Source of the DNA: Candidatus Nomurabacteria bacterium
GTDB lineage: Bacteria; Patescibacteriota; Minisyncoccia; Phycocordibacterales; SBAW01
Length of the DNA: 64,000 bases
Direction of reading: 5' to 3'
Assembly (NCBI GenBank): GCA_943356415.1
Contig: CALREW010000001.1
Span: forward strand, 149,252-213,251
Shown one piece after another: positions 3,524 through 14,700 of the stretch; within the stretch, counting starts at the first letter, position 1; every line of letters begins with the position of its first letter. The translations under genes were made by a program, and so were the position numbers. Below the pieces are notes generated by a model, which was given only the letters and a program-made list of their open reading frames with translations, searched no databases and was not told the DNA's origin.

Positions 3524-4578
3524 GCATCGCCATACTCATCGTCATATTTGGGCCCGCTGTCGCTGCGTTTGCGCTTGGCATCGCCATGACTCCAGCACTG
3601 ACGCATTTTTTGTATTCGCGAAAAATGTGGAAGAAAAAAGGCGGCAAGATAGCGCTCGACGGGAGCACTGCCGAAGTCTTCAACACCCTCCATACTGAAA
3701 AAGAAGTTGGTACTCCACGTTTTGGAGGCATTATCGTATGGGCCAGCGTCTTGGCTTCTGCTGCTTTTTTCTTTGCACTCGCTGCCGCAACGGGTTACAC
3801 GGCACTCTGGGATCTCTCCTTTATTTCACGTGGCGAAACCTGGCTACCACTTGCAACACTCGCGTTAGGAGCGGCGGTTGGACTTATCGATGACCTATAC
3901 GAGGTGCGCGGGGTAGGGGGGTTGCGACTACGCATGCGCCTTATCATCGTGGGGGTCACCGCACTTTTTTGTGCTTGGTGGTTCTACTCCAAGCTTGGAG
4001 TCACGGGCGTTTCCATACCGTTTGATGGCGTCTTAGAGCTTGGTGTGCTTTTTATCCCTCTCTTTATGCTGGTGGCACTTTCTGTCTACGCCGGAGGAGT
4101 TATTGATGGAATCGACGGGCTTGCAGGAGGCGTATTTGCTGCCATGTTTGCCGCGTACGGCGGCATTGCCATTACCAACGGACAGATAGACCTCGCCGCT
4201 TTCTGCGCAACCGTTGTTGGTGGGCTACTCGCGTTTTTATGGTTCAATATCCCACCTGCCAGGTTTTATCTTTCTGAAACAGGGACGATGGGTCTTACTT
4301 TGACGCTTACCGTTGTTGCATTTCTCTCCGATACCCTGAGCGATGGAGTAGGGGTCCTCGTGCTCCCTATTATTGCGCTGCCCCTTGTAGCAACCGTCGG
4401 ATCCGTTTTGCTACAAATCGTTTGGAAAAAGGTGTTTGGAAAAAAACTTCTGCGCATCTCTCCACTACATCACCATTTCGAAGCTATCGGCTGGCCAGCC
4501 TATAAGGTGACGATGCGCTATTGGATTGTCTCTGTTATGTGCGCGATCATGGGGGTGAGCATCTCTTTGTTGGGATAA
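3520..4578 (+). CDS. mraY: Phospho-N-acetylmuramoyl-pentapeptide transferase (MraY-like polyprenyl-phosphate glycosyl-1-P transferase)
   Basis: GTPRFGG and PLHHHFE motifs, multi-TM; dcw context upstream of ftsW. Confidence 0.65.
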   Translation: MSIAILIVIFGPAVAAFALGIAMTPALTHFLYSRKMWKKKGGKIALDGSTAEVFNTLHTEKEVGTPRFGGIIVWASVLASAAFFFALAAATGYTALWDLSFISRGETWLPLATLALGAAVGLIDDLYEVRGVGGLRLRMRLIIVGVTALFCAWWFYSKLGVTGVSIPFDGVLELGVLFIPLFMLVALSVYAGGVIDGIDGLAGGVFAAMFAAYGGIAITNGQIDLAAFCATVVGGLLAFLWFNIPPARFYLSETGTMGLTLTLTVVAFLSDTLSDGVGVLVLPIIALPLVATVGSVLLQIVWKKVFGKKLLRISPLHHHFEAIGWPAYKVTMRYWIVSVMCAIMGVSISLLG

Positions 4579-4599: not shown

Positions 4600-5700
4600 A
4601 TGAAGTCTGGACATCTTGATTACCCGTTCCTTTTTGTAACGTTACTGCTGTCTGCAACTGGCTTTCTTATTTTCTCGTCTGCAGCACTGGGTCTCCTTGC
4701 TCGCGAAGGCGCTTCGTTTGCAACGGTAGCTGGTACGCAAGTCCTCTTTGGTATTGTCTGCGGACTTATCGCCCTGTATGTCACCTCTCGTATAGACACC
4801 CGGTTATTGCGTCGCTTTTCTATCTATGTCTTTGGTATTTCGTGGATTGCGGCGTGGCTTCCATTTGTACCAGTTATTGGGCTCACGCTTAAAGGGGCGC
4901 ACCGTTGGATCGAGATAGGCGGCCTTTCATTCCAGCCTGCGGAACTCCTTAAAGTAGGGACTATCATTCTGCTCTCCTCGTACTTTGCTGCGTTTGCAAA
5001 CAAAGCCCACACCATCCGACACGGACTTATCCCATTTCTCGGCATTATTGCGATTGCCGCACTTCCGCTTGCCTTGCAACCCGACCACGACGGCATTCTT
5101 ATCCTCGGCATTGCCGGAGCTGCGGTGTACTTTGCGGCAGGGGGTCGCTTCCTTCATCTGCTTGGACTTGGCGTACTAGCGGCTGTAGTAGCAGCGCTGT
5201 TTATTTTCTCCAGACCTTACGTGATGGATCGCATAAAAACGTTTATCGACCCTTCACGCGACCCGCTTGGTGCCGGCTATCAAGTGACCCAATCGATTAT
5301 CGCCGTGGGTTCTGGTCAAGCGGTCGGTCGCGGCTTTGGACAAAGTATTCAAAAGTTCTCGCACCTACCCGAACCAATAGGGGACTCGGTATTTGCGGTT
5401 GCTGCTGAAGAGTTTGGTTTTGCCGGTTCAGTATTTTTAATAACGCTCTTCGTTGCATTTGCTGCGGCAGGTTTACGCATCGCTGCACTTTCAGCAGATA
5501 GATTTGGTGGCCTATTGGCGGTCGGACTTGTTGTGCACATAGTTAGCCAATCATTTATCAATATTGCATCTATGTTGGCGCTCTTTCCGTTATCGGGAAC
5601 CCCGCTTATTTTTGTAAGCCATGGCGGCACAGCCCTTCTTATTGCGCTCGCCGAGACTGGTATCATCCTTTCTGTATCGAGGCGTTTACGTAGTTCCTAA
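4600..5700 (+). CDS. ftsW: SEDS family peptidoglycan glycosyltransferase (FtsW/RodA)
   Basis: 10-TM SEDS-like sequence; between mraY and murG. Confidence 0.75.
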   Translation: MKSGHLDYPFLFVTLLLSATGFLIFSSAALGLLAREGASFATVAGTQVLFGIVCGLIALYVTSRIDTRLLRRFSIYVFGISWIAAWLPFVPVIGLTLKGAHRWIEIGGLSFQPAELLKVGTIILLSSYFAAFANKAHTIRHGLIPFLGIIAIAALPLALQPDHDGILILGIAGAAVYFAAGGRFLHLLGLGVLAAVVAALFIFSRPYVMDRIKTFIDPSRDPLGAGYQVTQSIIAVGSGQAVGRGFGQSIQKFSHLPEPIGDSVFAVAAEEFGFAGSVFLITLFVAFAAAGLRIAALSADRFGGLLAVGLVVHIVSQSFINIASMLALFPLSGTPLIFVSHGGTALLIALAETGIILSVSRRLRSS

Positions 5701-5705
5701 ATTGC

Positions 5706-5730
5706 GAACGCCCCCAAGTGAGGGGGCGTT
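5706..5730 (+). terminator. GC-rich hairpin AACGCCCCC-aagtga-GGGGGCGTT after ftsW, at the boundary of a GC-rich island
   Basis: 9-bp perfect stem; second hairpin AGACGG-agg-CCGTCT follows. Confidence 0.4.
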
Positions 5731-5769
5731 GCCCGAAGACGGAGGCCGTCTGCGGTAGTTGTTGTTGGT

Positions 5770-6618
5770 TCACCAGCGCCAGTTGATGGTGATGGCCCTG
5801 GTCTCGTGGACCTTGGCCAGCATGTAGCCAGCGAAACCGGCGACCAGGCTACCGGTCAGGAAGATGACCGTCGCCGTGGTATTGAAGCCAGGCGTGAAGC
5901 CCGTCACCTTGCCGATGGCGAGGCCGGTCAGCATGCCGAGCGCGGCTCCAGTCACCGCCGCGATGTGGGCATCCGAGACGGTGAACCAGTAGAAAGCCGT
6001 CGCAAACCGCGCAGCGAAGCGCACGATGGCCACGACAGCCGACAGCAGGTACGTCGAGTAGTGGACGACGCCCATCGGCATCCAGATCAGCAGCGCGGGG
6101 ATGCTGAAGTAGAGGAACGCCGAACCAGGAGCGACCCCGATGACATCAAACACGAAGCCGGTGCTGTAGCTCATCTTCTTCTCGAGGCGTTGGGCGCCAT
6201 ACATGGCACCGAGCGCGATGATGCCCGGCAGTCCAGCGAAGACGAAGGCACTCGTGGCCACTTCGCTGAATCCCGCTCCCACCGCGAGCGCTGCATCCAC
6301 TGGCGGAAGAGCCATGGCGGCCCAAAAGAAGAAGCCGTAGATAGCGGTGCCGCTAGCAACGAGATAGACCACAGCCACGATGACAGTGGTCCTCCTCCAG
6401 ACCGCACGGAGGTGCGCCGGATCGGTCGTCGTCGCCCACGCGTGCCGAAGACCGGCAAGGAAGGCTGCGGGGTCGCTCATGAACCACGAAACAGCGAGGC
6501 CGAGGAGCGAGCAGCAGACCAGCGACAAGCCGGTCGTGCCGAGGTACGCGTAGAAGGCGAGAAAGGTCGCCGCTCCGCCAATCGCAGAGAGAGCAACCTG
6601 ACGCTGCAGATGTGTCAC
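5770..6618 (-). CDS. Hypothetical multi-TM membrane protein in a GC-rich (about 62%) island between ftsW and murG
   Basis: Long ORF with multiple hydrophobic helices; opposite-strand ORF 5806..6744 is Arg/Asp-rich low-complexity, typical antisense artefact. Confidence 0.45.
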   Translation of the reverse strand: MTHLQRQVALSAIGGAATFLAFYAYLGTTGLSLVCCSLLGLAVSWFMSDPAAFLAGLRHAWATTTDPAHLRAVWRRTTVIVAVVYLVASGTAIYGFFFWAAMALPPVDAALAVGAGFSEVATSAFVFAGLPGIIALGAMYGAQRLEKKMSYSTGFVFDVIGVAPGSAFLYFSIPALLIWMPMGVVHYSTYLLSAVVAIVRFAARFATAFYWFTVSDAHIAAVTGAALGMLTGLAIGKVTGFTPGFNTTATVIFLTGSLVAGFAGYMLAKVHETRAITINWRW

Positions 6619-6772
6619 GCTTTGTGCACTCCGTCTTTACGGACATCCGGAAGTGGAGCCGTTCCGAAATGCACTGTACTACTGAAAATAGACTTCGTCT
6701 ATAGTACGCCGCTTACTGGGAAATACTCTTTAATTTCATGCTAATCTGTAGGAACTACTAATAGTCAGAGGG

Positions 6773-7900
6773 ATGAAAATACTGCTTACAGGAGGAGGTT
6801 CAGGAGGCCATTTTTACCCCATAATCGCGGTGGCAGAAGCTATCCGTGACTTGGCAAAAGAGCGCAAGCTGCTCGATCCTTTTCTCTATTACGCGGCGCC
6901 AGAGCCGTATAATGCGCAGTCTCTTGTTGAGAACGATATTACATTCGTCCAGACTTCAGCCGGAAAGATGCGACGCTATTTTTCATTGCTTAACTTTTTT
7001 GATTTCTTCAAAACGGCATGGGGGGTTACGGTGTCAGTCTTTCGCATTTTTTTCCTGTACCCAGACGTTATTTTTGGCAAAGGAGGGTACGCGTCGTTCC
7101 CGACACTCCTTGCGGCGCGACTTTTTCGCATTCCAGTTGTCATTCACGAGTCCGACACCGTGCCTGGACGCGTAAACAAATGGGCGGGTAAATTTGCCAC
7201 ACGTATCGCCGTCTCGTACCCACGCGCCGCAGCATTTTTCCCAAAGGACAAAGTGGCAGTGACCGGTAACCCCATACGCAAAGCGATACTCACACCCGCA
7301 ACCGAAGGAGCGCACGAGTTTCTCAAACTTGAGCGGGAAGTGCCTGTCATTCTCGTTGTTGGTGGTTCACAAGGCTCTGCAGTTTTAAACGACGCCATAC
7401 TGCGTGCATTGCCTGACCTTCTTGCAGATTTTCAAATCATCCATCAGACCGGCGCGGCAAACCTCGCAGAAGTTGAACAGCTGGCGTCAGTTATTCTTGC
7501 AGACTCGCCCTACAAAGGACGCTACCGCCCGTTTGCATATCTCGACGATCTTGCGACACGTATGTCTGCCGGGGCCGCGTCGCTTGTTATTTCTCGTGCC
7601 GGTTCTGCCATCTTTGAAATTGCCGCGTGGGGCAAGCCAGCCATTCTCATTCCTATTCCAGATAGCATTGTGAAAGATCAAACAACAAACGCCTTTACGT
7701 ACGCACGCGGAGGTGGAGCCGTGGTGATAGAACAAAACAATCTCTCCGCGACACTTCTTGCATCAGAAATTCGCCGCATCCTCAACAATCAAGATCTCTA
7801 TGACCGCATGCGTCTTGCTGCGACTGCTTCATCGACGGCAGATGCGGCGCGCATTATTGCAGACGAATTGTTACGCATCGCACTCTCGCACGAAAAGTAA
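6773..7900 (+). CDS. murG: Undecaprenyldiphospho-muramoylpentapeptide beta-N-acetylglucosaminyltransferase
   Basis: MKILLTGGGSGGHFYP N-terminus, GT28 family. Confidence 0.85.
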   Translation: MKILLTGGGSGGHFYPIIAVAEAIRDLAKERKLLDPFLYYAAPEPYNAQSLVENDITFVQTSAGKMRRYFSLLNFFDFFKTAWGVTVSVFRIFFLYPDVIFGKGGYASFPTLLAARLFRIPVVIHESDTVPGRVNKWAGKFATRIAVSYPRAAAFFPKDKVAVTGNPIRKAILTPATEGAHEFLKLEREVPVILVVGGSQGSAVLNDAILRALPDLLADFQIIHQTGAANLAEVEQLASVILADSPYKGRYRPFAYLDDLATRMSAGAASLVISRAGSAIFEIAAWGKPAILIPIPDSIVKDQTTNAFTYARGGGAVVIEQNNLSATLLASEIRRILNNQDLYDRMRLAATASSTADAARIIADELLRIALSHEK

Positions 7901-9231
7901 TGTTTGATTTTCTTAAAACAAAACCGCGTGTACGCATGGCACCGTCTCCAACGGGTAACCTGCATATCGGGACTGCACGCACCACACTTATTAACTACCT
8001 ATTTGCAAAAAGTACCGGCGGAACGTTTGTTGTGCGCGTTGAAGATACCGACAAAGAACGCAGCAAGCTAGAATTTGAAAAAAATATCCTCGATGGTTTT
8101 ACGTGGCTCGGTCTTACCTGGGACGAGTTTTATCGCCAATCAGAGCGCACCGACATATATAAAAAGGCACTCGCTCGTCTTATCAAAGAAGACAAGGCAT
8201 ACGTATCTAAAGAACCCGGCAAGAAAGACCCAAACGAAACTGTTGAAGTTGTGCGCTTACGGAACCCTGGAGGCACCGTAACCTTTGATGATGTTGTTCG
8301 TGGCCCGATCACTACTGACGTATCTGACTTAGGAGATTTTGTTATTGCTCGTGCCATTGATGACCCGCTGTATCACTTTGCGGTGGTAGTAGATGACGGC
8401 GAGACAGGCATTACGCACGTGATTCGCGGCGACGACCATATCAGCAACACGCCGCGCCAAATCCTTATTCTTGAGGCGCTCGGTTACACACGCCCTATTT
8501 ACGCGCACTTGCCGCTCGTGTTAGCACCCGACCGCTCGAAACTTTCTAAACGACATGGGGCAACCGCGCTCGACGATTACCGTGCGATGGGCTTTATACC
8601 CGAAGGCCTTACCAACTACCTTGCCTTCCTTGGCTGGAATCCCGGCACCGAGCAAGAAATCTTTACCCTCGAAGAATTGAGTCGTGCCTTCAAACTCGAG
8701 CAGCTCCAGAAGAGCGGCGCAATTTTTGATATGACTCGTCTTTCCTTTGTAAATCGTGAACACCTAAAGAGGCTCCCTGAGAACGAGTTTGCAAAACGCT
8801 TAGCGGATTTTGGTGTAACGGCAGACTCACGCCTGCTCCCACTTCTTCATGAACGTGTATCAACGCTTAAGGAAGCCGCTGACCTCCTTCTTAGCGACGA
8901 GTTCGCATTCCTCGGGACGGCCCCAGTCCAGGATGCCACCCTGCTCGTGCCTCGAGTCAAAGACAGGGAAGTAAGCCGGGGTGAGACCGCAGAGCATCTG
9001 GGCACTGTTTTAAGCCTTTTGGAGGCTATTTCCCCATCACAGTTCACTGCTGAAGCAGTTAAAGAGGTGGTGTGGCCCTACGCAGAAAAAGAAGGGAAGG
9101 GGGTTGTGCTGTGGCCCATGCGTGTAGGGTTAACCGGTAAGGAGCGCTCGCCAGATCCTTTCACAGTCGCAGCTCTGCTTGGAAAAGAAGAAACTGTTGC
9201 GCGTCTTACTGCCGCACGCACCGCGCTCTAA
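7900..9231 (+). CDS. gltX: Glutamyl-tRNA synthetase
   Basis: PSPTGNLHIG (HIGH) and KLSKRHG (KMSKS) motifs; TAATG overlap with murG stop. Confidence 0.9.
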   Translation: MFDFLKTKPRVRMAPSPTGNLHIGTARTTLINYLFAKSTGGTFVVRVEDTDKERSKLEFEKNILDGFTWLGLTWDEFYRQSERTDIYKKALARLIKEDKAYVSKEPGKKDPNETVEVVRLRNPGGTVTFDDVVRGPITTDVSDLGDFVIARAIDDPLYHFAVVVDDGETGITHVIRGDDHISNTPRQILILEALGYTRPIYAHLPLVLAPDRSKLSKRHGATALDDYRAMGFIPEGLTNYLAFLGWNPGTEQEIFTLEELSRAFKLEQLQKSGAIFDMTRLSFVNREHLKRLPENEFAKRLADFGVTADSRLLPLLHERVSTLKEAADLLLSDEFAFLGTAPVQDATLLVPRVKDREVSRGETAEHLGTVLSLLEAISPSQFTAEAVKEVVWPYAEKEGKGVVLWPMRVGLTGKERSPDPFTVAALLGKEETVARLTAARTAL

Positions 9232-9258
9232 AGCTCGTAGCGTATAATCAAACAATAA

Positions 9259-10563
9259 ATGCGTTTCCGTACTGTCTTGGTATTTATTTTTGTGCTTAGC
9301 TTGTGCGCCTCGGCGCAACGGGTAGCCCTTTTTATACCCACATCTATCGTCTACGCCGCAACTGAAGAAGAACTTAAGGCGCAAATAGACGAACACTCGA
9401 AACGTATCAATGACCTTGAAGCCGAAATATCAAAAATAGAAGTCGATCTTGCGACAACGACAAAACAGAAACAAACCCTGCAATCGACCATAAAAACGAT
9501 TGACCTCTCGCGTCAAAAAGTGAGCAGCAACATCAACCTCACTCAAAATAAAATACAAAAAACTGATCTTCAGATAACCGGACTCGCCGAAAATATTACC
9601 GAGACGGATAAAAAAATACACCGTCAACGCGAGGCAGTCCTTCTCGCACTCGCGTCCGTTTCTGATCTTGAAGATAGCGGCCTCGCCGTCTCACTTTTCT
9701 CTGGTGAAGATTTCTCGTCGTTTTTTGCTTCTGCCGCATCATTGTCGAGTTTGCGCGAAGCGCTACGTGCTCAAGTAGAAAAACTTTCGGGACTCAAGAC
9801 CAATCTTCAGGTCAGCAAAAGTTCTGCTGAAACTAAGCGCGCTGAACTTGCCGCACTCAAACGCGACCTCGCAGACCAAAAATCGCTTCTCGATCAAAAT
9901 CGAAAAGAGAAAGATTCGCTTTTAACTACAACAAAAAACAAAGAAGCGAACTATCAAAAACTCCTTGAAGAAAAGCGTGCGCTTAAAGCGCAGTTTGAAT
10001 CAGACCTTCGTGACTTTGAAAACCAGCTTAACCTCACGGTTGATGCGGCGAGTATCCCGAAATATGGCTCCGGCGTTTTGAAATGGCCAGTTGATAAGGT
10101 GGTTATCACTCAAAACTTTGGCAACACGGCATTCTCGACACAAAACCCACAGATTTATAGCGGCAAAGGGCACAACGGCATCGACCTTGGTATTCCTTCC
10201 GGTAGCAAAATTAAAGCTGCACGCGGAGGCACCGTAAAAGGTACCGGCGACACTGACCTTACCTGTCCGAATGCCTCCTACGGCAAATGGGTTCTTGTTC
10301 AACACGACAACGGACTTTCAACCCTCTACGCCCACCTCTCCTATATCCGCGTGACCACGGGCACGAGTGTTGCGACAGGGGATTTGCTCGGCTACAGCGG
10401 CAACACTGGCTACTCAACTGGTCCACATCTTCACTTCACTGTCTATGCAACACAAGGTGTCGAAATACGTTCCTTCTCTAGTCAGTCGTGTAAAGGAAAG
10501 AAGTACACCATGCCCGTTGCTGATACCAAAGCGTATCTAAATCCGCTTTCATACCTACCGTAA
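9259..10563 (+). CDS. M23 family metallopeptidase with N-terminal coiled coil (EnvC/NlpD-like murein hydrolase activator)
   Basis: Signal peptide, long coiled coil, C-terminal GHNGIDL...YAHL...HLHF M23 motifs. Confidence 0.8.
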   Translation: MRFRTVLVFIFVLSLCASAQRVALFIPTSIVYAATEEELKAQIDEHSKRINDLEAEISKIEVDLATTTKQKQTLQSTIKTIDLSRQKVSSNINLTQNKIQKTDLQITGLAENITETDKKIHRQREAVLLALASVSDLEDSGLAVSLFSGEDFSSFFASAASLSSLREALRAQVEKLSGLKTNLQVSKSSAETKRAELAALKRDLADQKSLLDQNRKEKDSLLTTTKNKEANYQKLLEEKRALKAQFESDLRDFENQLNLTVDAASIPKYGSGVLKWPVDKVVITQNFGNTAFSTQNPQIYSGKGHNGIDLGIPSGSKIKAARGGTVKGTGDTDLTCPNASYGKWVLVQHDNGLSTLYAHLSYIRVTTGTSVATGDLLGYSGNTGYSTGPHLHFTVYATQGVEIRSFSSQSCKGKKYTMPVADTKAYLNPLSYLP

Positions 10564-10618
10564 TGCAAAAGGCGCTGCGGGATTTCTCCCGAGCGCCTTC
10601 GCCCGTTTCTTGATGCGC

Positions 10619-11119
10619 TTACGCGCTAGAAGCTGCCACCGAAGCCAGACGAGGCCGCTGGCGGATGAGAAGTTTACCCTCCACCACCTCGCCAAAGCCT
10701 GACTCGCGGTACATCTCACCCGCCGCGCCTTCCATGACATGCGCGACGATGGCGAGATGCCGCTTCGCCATGCTGTCAGCCTCGTTGACGAGGCATTCGA
10801 TCAGCGCCGCCCGGAGACGCAGCAACTCTTCGCCGTCCTTGATGGGGGCGAAGAAGAAGTTGGTGATGATCCCGGCGTTGCCGCTCAACAGGTCGAGGTG
10901 AGCGAGCGAGGCCGTCGCCACGATCCGGCCGGTCTTGCCGATCAGGCTACGACGGACCACCGCGATGCGGCAGGATGTCATGACGCGCTGGAGGCCTTCG
11001 AGGGTGACGGACACGCCACCTTTCGAGATGTGGTGGAAATCGTCGACATCAGCTTGCGTCACGCACGAAGGGTGCAGCGTATGGGCTTGGCCATAGACGA
11101 AGCCAGTGTTCTCAATCAT
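10619..11119 (-). CDS. Hypothetical protein (GC-rich island); start placed at MIENTGF, track ORF extends to 11215
   Basis: ORF in about 62% GC DNA downstream of the GNAT gene on the same strand; no recognisable motif. Confidence 0.35.
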   Translation of the reverse strand: MIENTGFVYGQAHTLHPSCVTQADVDDFHHISKGGVSVTLEGLQRVMTSCRIAVVRRSLIGKTGRIVATASLAHLDLLSGNAGIITNFFFAPIKDGEELLRLRAALIECLVNEADSMAKRHLAIVAHVMEGAAGEMYRESGFGEVVEGKLLIRQRPRLASVAASSA

Positions 11120-11283
11120 GGCTCTAACCTCACAAGTTGCCAGTTGGGGAAACAAAGCAGATATTCGAACAGGTACAATCGATAAAACCATACAATAAAC
11201 CTTATATTCCGTCAATATAACGAAAACCGCCAGGGGAGACCCCGGGCGGTTTCGCTACTCACTCGTAGCTGGTGGATGGATAT

Positions 11284-11775
11284 TCACGTGCCGCCCGGGG
11301 TCCAACGATAGGTCCGTGTGTGGCGGCGCTGCACACCCCAGCCCTGCATCGTCGAGCCTTCGTAGAAGGCCTGTGCACCCGTCTTGCTCGAAGTCCAGTC
11401 GACGTGATCGAACTTCTTCTCACGCGCGACTTGGAACAGCTTGCGCATGACACGTTTGCCAAGGCCTCGGCCTTCATGTGCGCGGAGCGTCGAGACGTCA
11501 TTGACCGTCGCGAAGCGCTTGCCGACGTACTCCGCGAGCAAATGCGGCGTCATGATGGCCATCGAGACGATGGTGCCGCCACTGTCGCGCACAACCACCC
11601 AATACGCGCCTTGCGCAAGGACCATCTCATAGTGCCAACGCAGCTGCTCGAGCGACTTCGCAGGCAAGCTTTTGTTGCCAGCCAAATGCTGCATCAAAGC
11701 GGCGATGGCCTGCACATCCTTATCCGTAAGACGCTGTCCTCCGATCAACTCAGCCTCGCTGTAGGCTTCAGCCAT
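11284..11775 (-). CDS. GNAT family N-acetyltransferase (GC-rich island)
   Basis: Acetyl-CoA binding motif RAHEGRGLGKRVMRKL and C-terminal GAQAFYEGSTMQG. Confidence 0.7.
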   Translation of the reverse strand: MAEAYSEAELIGGQRLTDKDVQAIAALMQHLAGNKSLPAKSLEQLRWHYEMVLAQGAYWVVVRDSGGTIVSMAIMTPHLLAEYVGKRFATVNDVSTLRAHEGRGLGKRVMRKLFQVAREKKFDHVDWTSSKTGAQAFYEGSTMQGWGVQRRHTRTYRWTPGGT

Positions 11776-11863
11776 TGTCTTGGCCTCCCAGCCACTGTTT
11801 CAACCTCAGGGACTATAACCAACTCTCGTAGAAAAAAGTAGCGGACAGGGAAGTCGCTCCTCA

Positions 11864-11909
11864 AAAACAACAACGCCCGCGAGGAGTTACCCTCGGGGCG
11901 CGTGTTGAA
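11864..11909. repeat. Left copy of a 46-bp perfect inverted repeat (AAAACAACAACGCCCGCGAGGAGTTACCCTCGGGGCGCGTGTTGAA)
   Basis: Exact reverse complement found at 14154..14199; also hairpin-capable. Confidence 0.9.
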
Positions 11910-11935
11910 GTGATCCTTCGAAGTGATCCTTCAAG
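11910..11935. repeat. Tandem 13-bp direct repeat GTGATCCTTCGAA / GTGATCCTTCAAG abutting the left IR
   Basis: Read directly. Confidence 0.8.
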
Positions 11936-11946
11936 GTGCTGCGGCA

Positions 11947-12246
11947 TCACCTCTTCAGGCTGGCGATGACGTAGTTCGCCAGCGACCAGAGCGTGCCGAA
12001 ACCTGCGGCGACGGCGATGAAGGCCGACACGCCCCTGATAGGGCCAGCCGAAATACTTGCCGCGACAGCGACGCAGATGGCGCAAATCAGGCCATAGAAC
12101 GCTGCGCAGATCAGTTCCTGCGCGATATCGTTCAGTTCGTCCCACACGGGGAATCGCGGCTTACGGCGAGATGTAATGGACATTGTTCGAAGCCCTTCGC
12201 GCGAATGCCTCTGCACGAGCTTGATTGCTCTTAAGGTGCAGTGCAT
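11947..12246 (-). CDS. Hypothetical small membrane protein (99 aa, GC-rich) inside the IR-bounded cassette
   Basis: Two predicted TM helices; GC-rich codon usage. Confidence 0.35.
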   Translation of the reverse strand: MHCTLRAIKLVQRHSREGLRTMSITSRRKPRFPVWDELNDIAQELICAAFYGLICAICVAVAASISAGPIRGVSAFIAVAAGFGTLWSLANYVIASLKR

Positions 12247-12748
12247 TTAACCAAACATACGGTACCACACTTATTTAATTTAGCTAGCCTAGCCGAGATT
12301 TTGAACTAAATAGGGGAGACAGGCTTCCCTAAACCTCCATGATTTTTTGACTAAACCTTCAGCCGCGTTAACAACCAGGGAATTACATACCCACAAACCA
12401 ATCAGATTTATATACACGCGGTGTGTGTGGGGTAGAAGGTCTGTTGCCTTAGACTCAAAGCCCAGTACTTGGCTATCCTAGTTCGTCTATAGCCATACGT
12501 CGCAAAAGGTATATTGTGCGACGTATGTAATCTCTTCTCCCCTAGGGACTAGGATGGCCGAGACGGTTGGTTGGGGCTTAGTGCCCTACGACGTTGTGCA
12601 GCGCGTGGCGCGACAGAATGGCACCGGAATACTTTTATGGGAAAGAAGCGAGTGAAGGCTGAATCTAATAGGTCTACCCCCCCCCCGACCGATTTGCTCA
12701 GGAAACCGGGGGAGACCGGCTTCCCTATTTCAGCGTAGAATTGTACCT

Positions 12749-13192
12749 GTGAGACATCAGGAGCTCGTAAAACGGATTCGCGAAAATGCTGAGCAAGGCC
12801 GGAGATTGGAAGCCTTTTTGCTACTCATGGCGTACATAGAGACTATTTTCAACATGCACCTGCAGTTTGTAATTATGATGGCTGCGAATAAGCAAATTGG
12901 TGATAGTAAGCCAATGGATACTGTCTATAAGAAAATTGAGCGGATGCGTATCTCAGAAGTTTTGCAAATGCTTTTTGACATGCAGCAGATCGAAAAAGAG
13001 TTTAAGAACAACCTGGGAAAACTTTTTGATAAGAGGAATCAATTAATACACGACGTCGTAAGTCACGTCATGTTCAACGTTAAATTAGACGACTCACTTA
13101 CTGAACCTTACGAGCAGGCTTTTACTGTGTTGGAAACGGAAATTTTTAAAAGCTGGACTGCCACACTTGATCAGCAATTTACAGGCAATTAG
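12749..13192 (+). CDS. Hypothetical all-alpha protein with a HEPN-like Rx4H motif (KRNQLIHD); candidate RNase toxin or abortive-infection effector
   Basis: RNQLIH matches the R-[NHQ]-x3-H HEPN catalytic motif; AT-rich; GTG start; convergent with a membrane protein gene. Confidence 0.45.
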   Translation: MRHQELVKRIRENAEQGRRLEAFLLLMAYIETIFNMHLQFVIMMAANKQIGDSKPMDTVYKKIERMRISEVLQMLFDMQQIEKEFKNNLGKLFDKRNQLIHDVVSHVMFNVKLDDSLTEPYEQAFTVLETEIFKSWTATLDQQFTGN

Positions 13193-13232
13193 GCAGAGAA
13201 GTCTTGTCTGAAAGAAAAAGTATTTACATCCC

Positions 13233-13958
13233 CTACCTGTCTCTACTTTTGCGCCACGCGATAAACTCTAGGAACGGCAAGCAGACAAAATGACAGGCTT
13301 CTCTAAACAGGAGAAGTGTGCCGATCCAGACACTTAGAACAACGTAGTAAATCAAAATCGCATAATCCCATTTGAATATAGTGTGTATACATGCGTCTGA
13401 TCCCGGGCCAATATCGATTGCCATATGCTGCCCAGAGCTGAAGGTTGTTGTAGAAATTGGCGTCGCCGCAAAGAGAGTAGTTGTTGAAGCCATCCGTTTT
13501 CCAAGTTCACTTATGGGCAAGTTAGACCAAATGGTTTTTTCGTCGTGAACACTCAAACTAACGGAGGCGTCAGTTGGTGTCATTACCACATAAGAAACTT
13601 CGCTTGCTTGTGAATATTCTCCAGTTTCTACATTTCTAAATCCGACTGACTTTAGGTTGTTTGACGCCACAACATCAGCAATAAACCAACTGTCGGTAAA
13701 TTTGATTATAGGTTCCAGTGATTTCAATTCTTCATACGTAAAAGTAGTACTCTGGTTATTTCTTTCAGGGATTAGGCAAAAATCTCTTGAATAATGCTTA
13801 TCAACCCACACTAAAAATATAAAAGGGACGACAAGAATAAAAAGTGTTTTCCTAAATTGAGCACTGGCAAATAATCTAACAAGGAAATCTTTGACTTGCG
13901 GACCTTTCGAAGCAAGCCATTTTAACCTGACCCACCATTTAATAAGCACTTCTTTCAC
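13233..13958 (-). CDS. Hypothetical membrane protein (TM helices at both ends, central extracytoplasmic domain), AT-rich
   Basis: Hydrophobic segments LFILVVPFIFLVWV and YAILIYYVVLSVWIGTLLLF; convergent partner of the HEPN-like ORF. Confidence 0.45.
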   Translation of the reverse strand: MKEVLIKWWVRLKWLASKGPQVKDFLVRLFASAQFRKTLFILVVPFIFLVWVDKHYSRDFCLIPERNNQSTTFTYEELKSLEPIIKFTDSWFIADVVASNNLKSVGFRNVETGEYSQASEVSYVVMTPTDASVSLSVHDEKTIWSNLPISELGKRMASTTTLFAATPISTTTFSSGQHMAIDIGPGSDACIHTIFKWDYAILIYYVVLSVWIGTLLLFREACHFVCLPFLEFIAWRKSRDR

Positions 13959-14153
13959 GTTCTAACCCTACCACCAATAATTTACGCTAGAAGGGGTCTT
14001 CCCTTCTCCTGTAGAATGTAGCTGTGGGCTATATAATTAAGAAGAATATTCTACTTACTGGCGCTGGCTTCAGTGCAAATTTTGGTGGTCTCCTTGCTGC
14101 GGATAGTCCGAAACGACGAGGGAAAACCGCCAGAGTAATCGGTTCGGTTCGAG

Positions 14154-14199
14154 TTCAACACGCGCCCCGAGGGTAACTCCTCGCGGGCGTTGTTGTTTT
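14154..14199. repeat. Right copy of the 46-bp perfect inverted repeat; on the + strand it reads as hairpin plus T-run (terminator-like)
   Basis: Exact reverse complement of 11864..11909. Confidence 0.9.
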
Positions 14200-14244
14200 A
14201 AAACGGTATAATTAATCCCATACAAGCTTTAGATAATTTTCTTC

Positions 14245-14640
14245 ATGCAGATTCCTTCTTGGGCTGAGTTATATGCACCGGTCATCGCGCGCGTACTTAT
14301 GGGCGGTATGTTCCTTATGGCAGGTATCCAAAAGTTTATGACATTGGATACAACGGCTGGCTATATTGCCACGAGCTTCCTCCCTGCCCCGATGGCCATG
14401 GCAGTCATCGCAGCCATCGTTGAAACCGTACTCGGCGCGTCACTCCTTATCGGCTACCGCACCAAGCTTGCTGCGGCAGGCCTCGCAGTCTTTACCGTCA
14501 TTGCCACCATCGCCTTCCACACTGGATGGAGCGCCAACCAGATGCAGCAAGTCCTTTTTACCAAGAACCTTGCTATCGTTGCCGGTCTTCTCTATATGAT
14601 GGCGTTTGGTTCTGGTCGCTACGCAGTAAACAACAAATAG
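14245..14640 (+). CDS. DoxX family membrane protein
   Basis: 4-TM DoxX-like sequence (MGGMFLMAGIQKF...). Confidence 0.65.
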   Translation: MQIPSWAELYAPVIARVLMGGMFLMAGIQKFMTLDTTAGYIATSFLPAPMAMAVIAAIVETVLGASLLIGYRTKLAAAGLAVFTVIATIAFHTGWSANQMQQVLFTKNLAIVAGLLYMMAFGSGRYAVNNK

Positions 14641-14663
14641 GTTTTAGCTTCCCTGAACAAAAC

Positions 14664-14700
14664 AAAACCCCGGCTCACATGGAGCCGGGGTTTTGTTTTT
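14664..14700 (+). terminator. Intrinsic terminator, likely bidirectional: CCCCGGCTC-acatg-GAGCCGGGG plus T-run
   Basis: Perfect 9-bp GC stem flanked by A-run and T-run. Confidence 0.75.

Follow-up and report, generated by a model that had tools for sequence, protein, structure and literature searches.

Xer/dif systems include XerCD-dif of Escherichia coli and the single-recombinase systems XerH-difH, XerS-difSL and archaeal XerA-dif. Integrative mobile elements exploiting Xer (IMEX) include CTXphi, VGJphi, TLCphi and the gonococcal genetic island. Cassettes between inverted terminators are known from Omega-interposon-like insulation, and flexible 'replacement' genomic islands have also been described. 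The defining architecture of dif is an 11-6-11 near-palindrome (PMC5357621; PMC2731167). In Acinetobacter, gene modules flanked by inverted Xer sites, the pdif modules, are described in two reports (PMC12907356; PMC11705084). Here we analyzed 64,000 nucleotides from a Candidatus Nomurabacteria bacterium (assembly GCA_943356415.1, contig CALREW010000001.1, positions 149,252 to 213,251; hereafter the window), in which a first-pass annotation had suspected a 2.3-kb mobile or invertible cassette bounded by perfect 46-nt inverted repeats (11864-14199). Probably the interval marks the replication terminus of an uncultured Paceibacteria chromosome (Patescibacteria, or candidate phyla radiation, CPR), holds a dif site, a hotspot of gene turnover and twin terminators, and is no discrete mobile cassette. 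A literature search found no paper describing a dif site for Patescibacteria.

The window resembles the dif/Xer systems in carrying a 28-bp site of 11-6-11 architecture with partial dyad symmetry, whose inner arms and centre are best conserved and whose flanks vary. The 28-mer is single-copy per contig and, as in those systems, lies at a GC-skew switch and is an integration target for recombinase-less elements (PMC5357621; PMC2731167). It differs from proteobacterial dif in its outer arm, GTCG/CGAC, which is unlike the XerD arm, and from xerS and xerH in that the recombinase gene is not adjacent to it. The near-perfect inverted match between the two arms (10/11) is a hint of a single Xer, as known for XerH, XerS and XerA. 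Across the inner arms and the centre, 15 of 19 positions match E. coli dif, which we take to be GGTGCGCATAATGTATATTATGTTAAAT.

The likeness to IMEX belongs to a close relative, the locus L217 from Logan SRR24750914, and not to the window itself. L217 carries a 2.59-kb recombinase-less element in the site, with intact and hybrid flanks and a host-identical centre and arm, but the content of this element is unrelated to known IMEXs. The window has no second dif-like site, and therefore its own AT-rich block is no classical IMEX. As in the pdif modules, accessory genes of the window are bracketed by inverted short imperfect palindromes in a Xer/dif context. However, the brackets of the window are GC-rich hairpins of terminator type that are unrelated in sequence to its own dif, the dif lies inside the module, and no second module is known. 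Identical outward terminators around accessory genes and alternative slot contents in close relatives recall Omega-interposons and replacement islands. In contrast to an Omega-interposon, the locus is a natural one, L217 shares just one terminator with the window, and there is no evidence of the terminators moving with genes.

The candidate dif site

The putative dif lies at 12497-12524 on the + strand and reads ACGTCGCAAAA-GGTATA-TTGTGCGACGT, an 11-nt arm, a 6-nt centre and an 11-nt arm, forming a 28-bp near-palindrome in which the arms are inverted copies at 10 of 11 positions. It was found by blastn/nhmmer comparison of the cassette with related loci, which singled out a hairpin at 12494-12527. 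With up to four mismatches allowed, the core GTCGCAAAAGGTATATTGTGCGAC occurred once in each of 17 Paceibacteria loci, always in the variable slot between gltX-M23 and L27; the non-CPR loci retrieved by that query all lacked it. The exact degenerate pattern was present in at least 120 metagenome contigs, with one copy each and no contig appearing twice among the matches listed; about half of the loci among these listed matches carried the same syntenic markers. The total for the 28-mer was one per contig in at least 137 Patescibacteria contigs, and the single-copy contigs included some of 830, 637, 473, 346 and 260 kb.

The consensus TTTAAT-GTCGCAAAAGATATATTGTGCGAC-ATTAAA displays an 11-nt arm, the centre GRTATA and a second 11-nt arm (10/11 inverted), with variable flanks. 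Calculated from 114 distinct sites, it has high information over a 24-nt core and weak palindromic flanks. The 28-mer has the dif architecture as previously defined (PMC5357621). Weight matrix and half-site scans of the window identified this single dif-like site and no second one.

Thirty-six loci extended at least 1.5 kb to either side of the site. In 29 of them the GC skew to its left exceeded that to its right (binomial p 3e-4, Wilcoxon 2e-7), the means being +0.069 and -0.025, respectively. The window has nine long genes to the left of the site, every one on the + strand, and to the right of it the - strand holds 68% of the coding residues. Skew and gene orientation both switch at the site, which agrees with the terminus location of a dif. 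A tyrosine-recombinase motif adjoined the 28-mer in only two of about 200 loci. Judged from the sequence comparisons as a whole, those with close and more distant relatives (below) included, the 28-mer is very probably a dif/Xer site. We infer that one or more Xer-type tyrosine recombinases of the host, encoded elsewhere, would resolve chromosome dimers there.

Some further motifs accompany the site. The 19-nt hairpin motif GGGGAGACNGGCTTCCCTA stands in direct copies about 190 nt on each side of dif in both the window and L217 (reverse-complement 8996-9013 and 11974-11991). The first window copy, to the left of dif (12313-12331, +, GGGGAGACAGGCTTCCCTA), forms a 6-bp hairpin and is present at the homologous place in L217, while the second (12709-12727, +, GGGGAGACCGGCTTCCCTA) is the last recognisable homology to L217 before a strain-specific block. 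A weaker window copy was observed at 13292-13308. In many other genomes a C-rich CTCCCC/CCGGCTCCCC element is located 30-60 nt downstream of the site.

The variable slot in related genomes

The flanking genes place the window in Patescibacteria/Paceibacteria, where the best GltX relatives among GTDB species representatives share 53-55% identity. The gene order gltX, M23 peptidase, a variable segment of 0.7-3 kb, (DoxX), p149, RNase T, p137 and L27 was found clade-wide. In the window the slot is flanked on the left, outside the repeats, by a conserved GNAT acetyltransferase gene (11284-11775, -; Pfam E 9e-10), as the first-pass annotation had recognised, and on the right by a conserved gene for a DoxX family membrane protein (14245-14640, +; Pfam E 2e-17). 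No homologs of p198, GNAT, p99, p147 or p241 of the window were detected in the variable slots of these clade relatives, two of which hold an ABC transporter there. A GNAT homolog at 89% identity was found on 21 Logan contigs, its locus being L217.

The close relative L217 shares 98-99% amino-acid identity with the window in GltX, M23, DoxX and p149. From window position 6766 to the 28-mer the two are collinear (about 91% DNA identity), over a stretch that takes in GNAT, the left 46-nt repeat arm, p99 and a non-coding region. Homology then breaks inside the 28-mer: L217 has a full site, 2.59 kb of unrelated DNA and a hybrid site, ...TTCGACCTAAGGG-GGTATA-TTGTGCGACGTATG, in which the left arm has diverged and centre and right arm are identical; after it the window sequence resumes from 12508. 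The L217 element (4698-7288, equal to reverse-complement 9205-11795) is thus integrated exactly in the dif-like site. No recombinase is among its four proteins: two are unknowns, one is a DUF1508 protein, and the fourth matches the Proteasome family of Pfam and is HslV-like by PHROGs. A full site, a recombinase-less insert and a hybrid site together are the signature of host-Xer integration as in IMEX, and by this comparison the window appears to be the empty site relative to the element.

Comparable arrangements were observed elsewhere. A contig from another sample (L219) ends at the dif-like site, which may reflect a presence/absence polymorphism. Pairs of full and hybrid sites, the hybrids again keeping the centre and right arm and diverging in the left arm, lie 0.3-2.2 kb apart in the Patescibacteria contigs L020 (12942/13590), L180 (1507/3728) and L203 (2039/2352), which suggests small Xer-exploiting insertions or their remnants.

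Past dif, homology between the window and L217 runs to the second GGGGAGACNGGCTTCCCTA copy at about 12730 and resumes at the DoxX start codon (14245). The strain-specific unit is therefore about 12730-14236, comprising p147, p241, a 50-aa open reading frame (ORF) and the right arm, and not 11864-14199. L217 replaces this unit with 2.9 kb of other genes, including a different, Pfam-significant HEPN gene. In the more distant L220 (GltX 77%, GNAT 50% identity), GNAT is followed by 285 nt, a perfect consensus site, about 80 nt and DoxX, so that the slot between the two genes is only about 390 bp, a minimal GNAT-dif-DoxX state.

Segments of 500 nt with less than 42% GC were confined to 12751-14250 in the whole window, while segments above 60% GC are common elsewhere. 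Thus, only the right 1.5 kb or so is compositionally foreign. The compositional difference first attributed to the cassette and its surroundings holds for this AT-rich part, whereas the GC-rich small ORF, the GNAT gene and its neighbor are not outliers.

We propose a hotspot of gene turnover, and of IMEX integration, in the intergenic slot that holds dif and is bounded by the conserved GNAT and DoxX genes. The lineage of the window would have gained p99 to the left of dif and the AT-rich block of about 1.5 kb (p147 and p241) to its right. L217 would instead carry other genes together with the recombinase-less, IMEX-like element integrated in dif.

The 46-nt inverted repeats

The two perfect inverted repeats are real. 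The 46-nt element, here called T, is present at 11864-11909 and 14154-14199, the copies being 100% complementary and spaced by 2244 nt. No other copy was found in the window with up to three mismatches tolerated (chance expectation 0), and the pair is the sole inverted repeat of at least 24 nt at more than 80% identity in these 64 kb. In 80 related loci, perfect inverted repeats of at least 20 nt lying more than 100 nt apart were rare, and the longest was 22 nt. The arrangement recurs in independent assemblies from three samples that are otherwise identical to the window, and it is therefore no assembly artefact. The first-pass annotation had proposed a search for other copies. None was found in the window or in 2.19 Mb of related Patescibacteria loci, and the exact 25-mer core was absent from three public collections (genome, viral and metagenome); the whole cassette (11864-14199) had no match in a phage collection. 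There is no target-site duplication around the arms, as the outer flanks, ...GCTCCTC before the left arm and AAAACGG... after the right arm, contain no direct repeat. The flanks of the two arms share no similarity beyond the 46 nt on either side, and thus a larger inverted duplication is not visible. The 13-bp tandem repeat reported beside the left arm is also present, as GAAGTGATCCTTC in two copies at 11907-11932, abutting the inner edge of the arm. It is specific to the window lineage, L217 having a single copy, and looks like recent slippage.

Read outward, each arm folds into a GC-rich hairpin whose stem of about 17 bp has one bulge, with UUGUUGUUUU (8/10 U) behind it. The U-tract stands behind the hairpin in the outward reading only (- strand for the left arm, + strand for the right arm); the inward reading has none. 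The left arm folds with a minimum free energy of -30.7 kcal/mol in a 71-nt context (z -4.3) and lies 38 nt downstream of the p99 stop codon. The right arm is likewise terminator-like towards DoxX. A GNRA tetraloop was considered for the hairpin and dropped, as the predicted pairs give a UAAC loop closed by G-U. A GC-rich hairpin with a U-rich tract downstream of a gene is what is expected of an intrinsic terminator, and a bidirectional terminator at 14659-14699 shares the 'stem + GTTTTGTTTT' style of the arms. From the hairpin with its outward U-tract, the position of the left arm behind the p99 stop and this shared style, the arms are best read as two copies of one putative intrinsic terminator facing out of the interval. 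The first-pass annotation had allowed that they might be ordinary terminators found at many unrelated loci; their look agrees with this, but their distribution does not, as no other loci carrying them were found.

L217 has only one 46-nt copy, the left one, which is identical at 46/46 positions and stands at the same position behind the same small membrane gene. The DNA just inside it is orthologous in both genomes, except for the 13-bp tandem duplication. From this comparison we conclude that the left arm would be the ancestral copy, the resident terminator of p99, and the right arm a derived duplicate in inverted orientation, specific to this lineage and placed at the far end of the acquired block. 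The left copy would end p99 transcription. Since both copies face outward, transcripts leaving the slot would be halted before GNAT or DoxX. Of the possible origins of the right copy, two are favoured: slot replacement through homologous recombination with a donor allele carrying T, or local duplication.

Just outside the left arm, at 11845-11863, there is an apparent left half (AGGGAAGTCGC) of a bidirectional terminator hairpin. The corresponding hairpin is intact in L220 (AGGGAAGTGCGACTTCCCT, reverse complement of 4090-4500), where it lies between GNAT and dif. The T-p99 segment may have inserted into or beside that older L220-type terminator.

Other explanations of the interval were weighed against that of a terminus locus with twin terminators. 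An invertible segment, in which the 46-nt arms serve as substrates for homologous recombination or a trans-acting recombinase, would flip the dif-containing module and switch the genes that face GNAT and DoxX. This is unlikely. In its favour, perfect repeats of this length would suffice for RecA-dependent exchange, an imperfect 11-6-11 palindrome can be made out in the core of each arm, and Logan contigs assembled at k=31 break at the arms and leave the orientation undecided there. However, any repeat of at least k would break Logan contigs, and the k=141 contigs from two samples, like the window, cross the arms in the same orientation. Every assembly crossing an arm has this one orientation, and the segment first suspected of inverting is thus not a demonstrated invertible one. 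Moreover, collinearity with the relative lacking the right arm extends over the left 870 nt of the interval between the arms, and no recombinase gene was found nearby (5.3-20.6 kb of the window). The lack of a recombinase, already remarked in the first-pass annotation, extends to all genes called at 5.3-20.6 kb and in stretches from about 30 to about 62 kb, among which no recombinase or transposase Pfam match was detected.

The origin of the right copy has a further possible account, to which we assign an equally small probability and which is compatible with the terminator reading, as it concerns the origin of the copy only. The right arm could be the last remnant of a larger palindromic duplication that arose in double-strand break repair near the terminus/dif, the remainder having later been overwritten by the HEPN block. 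Terminus regions break easily, and the T copies mirror each other across dif, each marking the end of inserted DNA that is farther from dif. However, the similarity remaining outside the 46 nt is zero on either side, and the edges of the copy are those of a functional terminator unit, which fits selection or capture of the unit better than decay of a large duplication.

It is slightly less likely still that the 28-mer is no dif but an operator, a promoter element or a small-RNA hairpin, which would make the interval an ordinary intergenic island. The stretch 12247-12748, which contains the 28-mer, has no ORF of at least 60 aa and had been described as a structured non-coding region; its + strand indeed folds better than shuffled sequences (z -2.8), and its one singled-out element is the 28-bp candidate dif. 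An outer stem beside the core covaries in several genomes, and the C-rich element recurs 30-60 nt downstream. However, palindromic flanks are equally expected around a recombinase site, and no Rfam family matched, with nothing found inside the cassette even at permissive thresholds. An operator or RNA would leave unexplained the element inserted exactly in the site with a hybrid duplicate, the switch in skew and strand bias, and the strict restriction to one copy even on contigs as long as 830 kb.

We give a little less weight again to a role of the arms beyond termination. As sites of recombination or processing, they might let the whole dif module invert or be swapped between chromosomes, which would be a chromosomal, terminator-bounded analogue of the Acinetobacter pdif modules. 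In another form of the same proposal, T could be a tiny self-propagating 'portable terminator' marking the ends of cassettes recruited beside dif in Patescibacteria.

The least probable explanation is the one from which the interval was first described, a non-autonomous transposable element (a cassette, or similar to a miniature inverted-repeat transposable element) with 46-bp terminal inverted repeats mobilised in trans; it has the perfect 46-nt terminal repeats, the absent internal recombinase and a right-hand block that is foreign in composition and strain-specific, but it is largely refuted, as there is no target-site duplication and no further copy in the window and related loci or, as the exact 25-mer core, in public collections, and as L217, without the right arm, keeps the left arm, p99 and dif orthologous and collinear from outside the left arm through to dif, so that the interval is not an insertion unit. 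The strain-specific block begins about 870 nt inside the left arm, and the ends of presence and absence do not coincide with the repeats, L217 lacking only about 12730-14236.

Several observations nevertheless weigh against a terminus locus with a dif, twin terminators and a HEPN gene. The arms were not listed by a simple terminator consensus scan, probably because their stem is bulged. The exact, inverted, perfect 46-nt size of the duplicate is not explained by any event that we reconstructed. On the left side of the site the window offers a short flank, where over 7-12 kb the GC skew is flat or at most weakly positive. No Xer gene was found in the annotated parts of the window (5.3-20.6 kb and stretches from about 30 to about 62 kb), and the statement of one site per genome rests on contigs rather than closed genomes. 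The putative HEPN protein p147 falls under the curated cut-offs of all Pfam HEPN models (DUF3644, 15.4 bits against a cut-off of 27.6), and no partner (antitoxin) gene is conserved beside the members of its family.

Genes of the slot and meaning of the locus

The small hydrophobic ORF, the 500-nt ORF-free stretch and the convergent AT-rich gene pair of the first description are all present. Searches with PADLOC, which it had recommended, and with NCBIfam and PHROGs gave no significant match for any ORF of the cassette.

The protein p147 (12749-13192, +) is a stand-alone protein assigned to the HEPN fold. A word-indexed search returned no relatives of p147, while an exhaustive HMMER search identified 27. 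The GTG start at 12749 is supported by the homologs, whose alignment with p147 begins at its first residue. All 27 sequences of the family have R96, and at least 90% have N97 and H101 (KRNQLIHD in p147; KRNxxxHD), so that the Rx4-6H HEPN motif is found across the family. An N-terminal motif, LEAFLxQSAYIE, includes the invariant E31. Two family members matched DUF4145 (E 4e-4), and the alpha-helical bundle fold of HEPN proteins is assigned to p147. A PDB sequence search with p147 or the family profile gave nothing significant, and a single-sequence AlphaFold2 model was poor (predicted local distance difference test 59.5) and not used. These features suggest an RNase-type effector that may act in toxicity or defence.

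In falling under the Pfam thresholds, p147 differs from the known stand-alone HEPN proteins (DUF4145-like, DUF3644 and Ymh; HEPN-MNT toxins; Abi). Unlike HEPN-MNT pairs, it has no MNT or other conserved partner and is convergent with an orphan membrane protein; no co-oriented MNT neighbor is present, the upstream 500 nt being non-coding and p241 convergent. Members of the family are found in surroundings that are variable, mobile or defence-like. The closest homolog (44% identity) occupies the same dif-adjacent slot in another Paceibacteria genome, where it is convergent with a Ymh-family HEPN gene. Another homolog adjoins genes for a relaxase, a coupling protein and a serine recombinase, and a further one is near PIN and AAA_15/21 genes. 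Four homologs (P0006, P0014, P0021 and P0025) display an unusual architecture, with a sigma-70 region 4 helix-turn-helix and the DNA-binding domain from the C-terminus of DnaA (Bac_DnaA_C, E 3e-25) fused to their C-terminal end. An ORF upstream of the homolog P0008 (L090 1-369) looks by eye like a nucleoside 2-deoxyribosyltransferase.

The convergent gene p241 (13233-13958, -) encodes two hydrophobic segments around a domain of about 150 aa. It is an orphan, as a word-indexed search of 5.8 billion clusters returned only itself. To the left of dif, p99 (11947-12246, -) encodes 99 aa with two hydrophobic, likely transmembrane segments; its true start is likely the internal ATG at 12183, giving 78 aa, and the ORF is kept in L217 at 73% amino-acid identity. 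Neither p99 nor p241 had a family match in Pfam, PADLOC, NCBIfam or PHROGs. The idea of an accessory, defence-like or toxin-like island thus holds in spirit, since the AT-rich part is strain-specific and one of its two genes encodes a HEPN-fold protein that resembles RNase toxins.

The 50-aa ORF at 14024-14176 (+) is doubtful. It runs into the right arm, has no homologs or family matches and contains a palindrome at 14038-14057; the segment is more likely the upstream promoter/operator region of p241 than a gene. A SIR2-like N-terminus (GAGFS), proposed by eye, was dropped as no search supported it.

A poly-C tract (12677-12686, +) lies 63 nt upstream of the p147 start and is the only G/C homopolymer of at least 8 nt in the 64 kb. 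It is also the sole difference over 12.4 kb between assemblies, with C10 in the window and ERZ27280315 and C9 in ERZ27280317; L217 has C5. In the C9 version an upstream ORF (TTG at 12571) is fused in frame with p147. The tract could be phase-variable or reflect homopolymer assembly noise.

Beyond the GNAT gene, the p198 ORF (10604-11238, -) shares 51% protein and about 65% DNA identity with its L217 allele, while the neighbors share 89-99%. Its edges are 40-nt stretches at 100% identity to L217 (10564-10603 and 11239-11278), and by this comparison p198 appears to be a sharply bounded hypervariable allele. The counterpart in L220 shows weak GNAT similarity, and p198 may be a second, divergent GNAT-like gene. 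At this place public gene calls give a 148-aa ORF on the opposite strand.

The inverted-repeat 'cassette' is in itself ordinary, a duplicated putative terminator around accessory genes. Beyond this, the analysis yields a candidate dif for Paceibacteria/Parcubacteria, a large clade without cultured members; dif/Xer, IMEX and HEPN are kinds of system already known. The near-identical arms of the 28-mer suggest a single-recombinase Xer system in these reduced genomes. With a single-copy 28-mer that marks the terminus, CPR genomes recovered from metagenomes could be oriented and closed more easily, and estimates of replication rate could be anchored. Xer-exploiting mobile elements would likewise be easier to find in organisms with very few recognisable mobile elements. 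For HEPN-type defence or toxin genes, the slot flanking the candidate dif would be a hotspot of turnover among near-identical strains.

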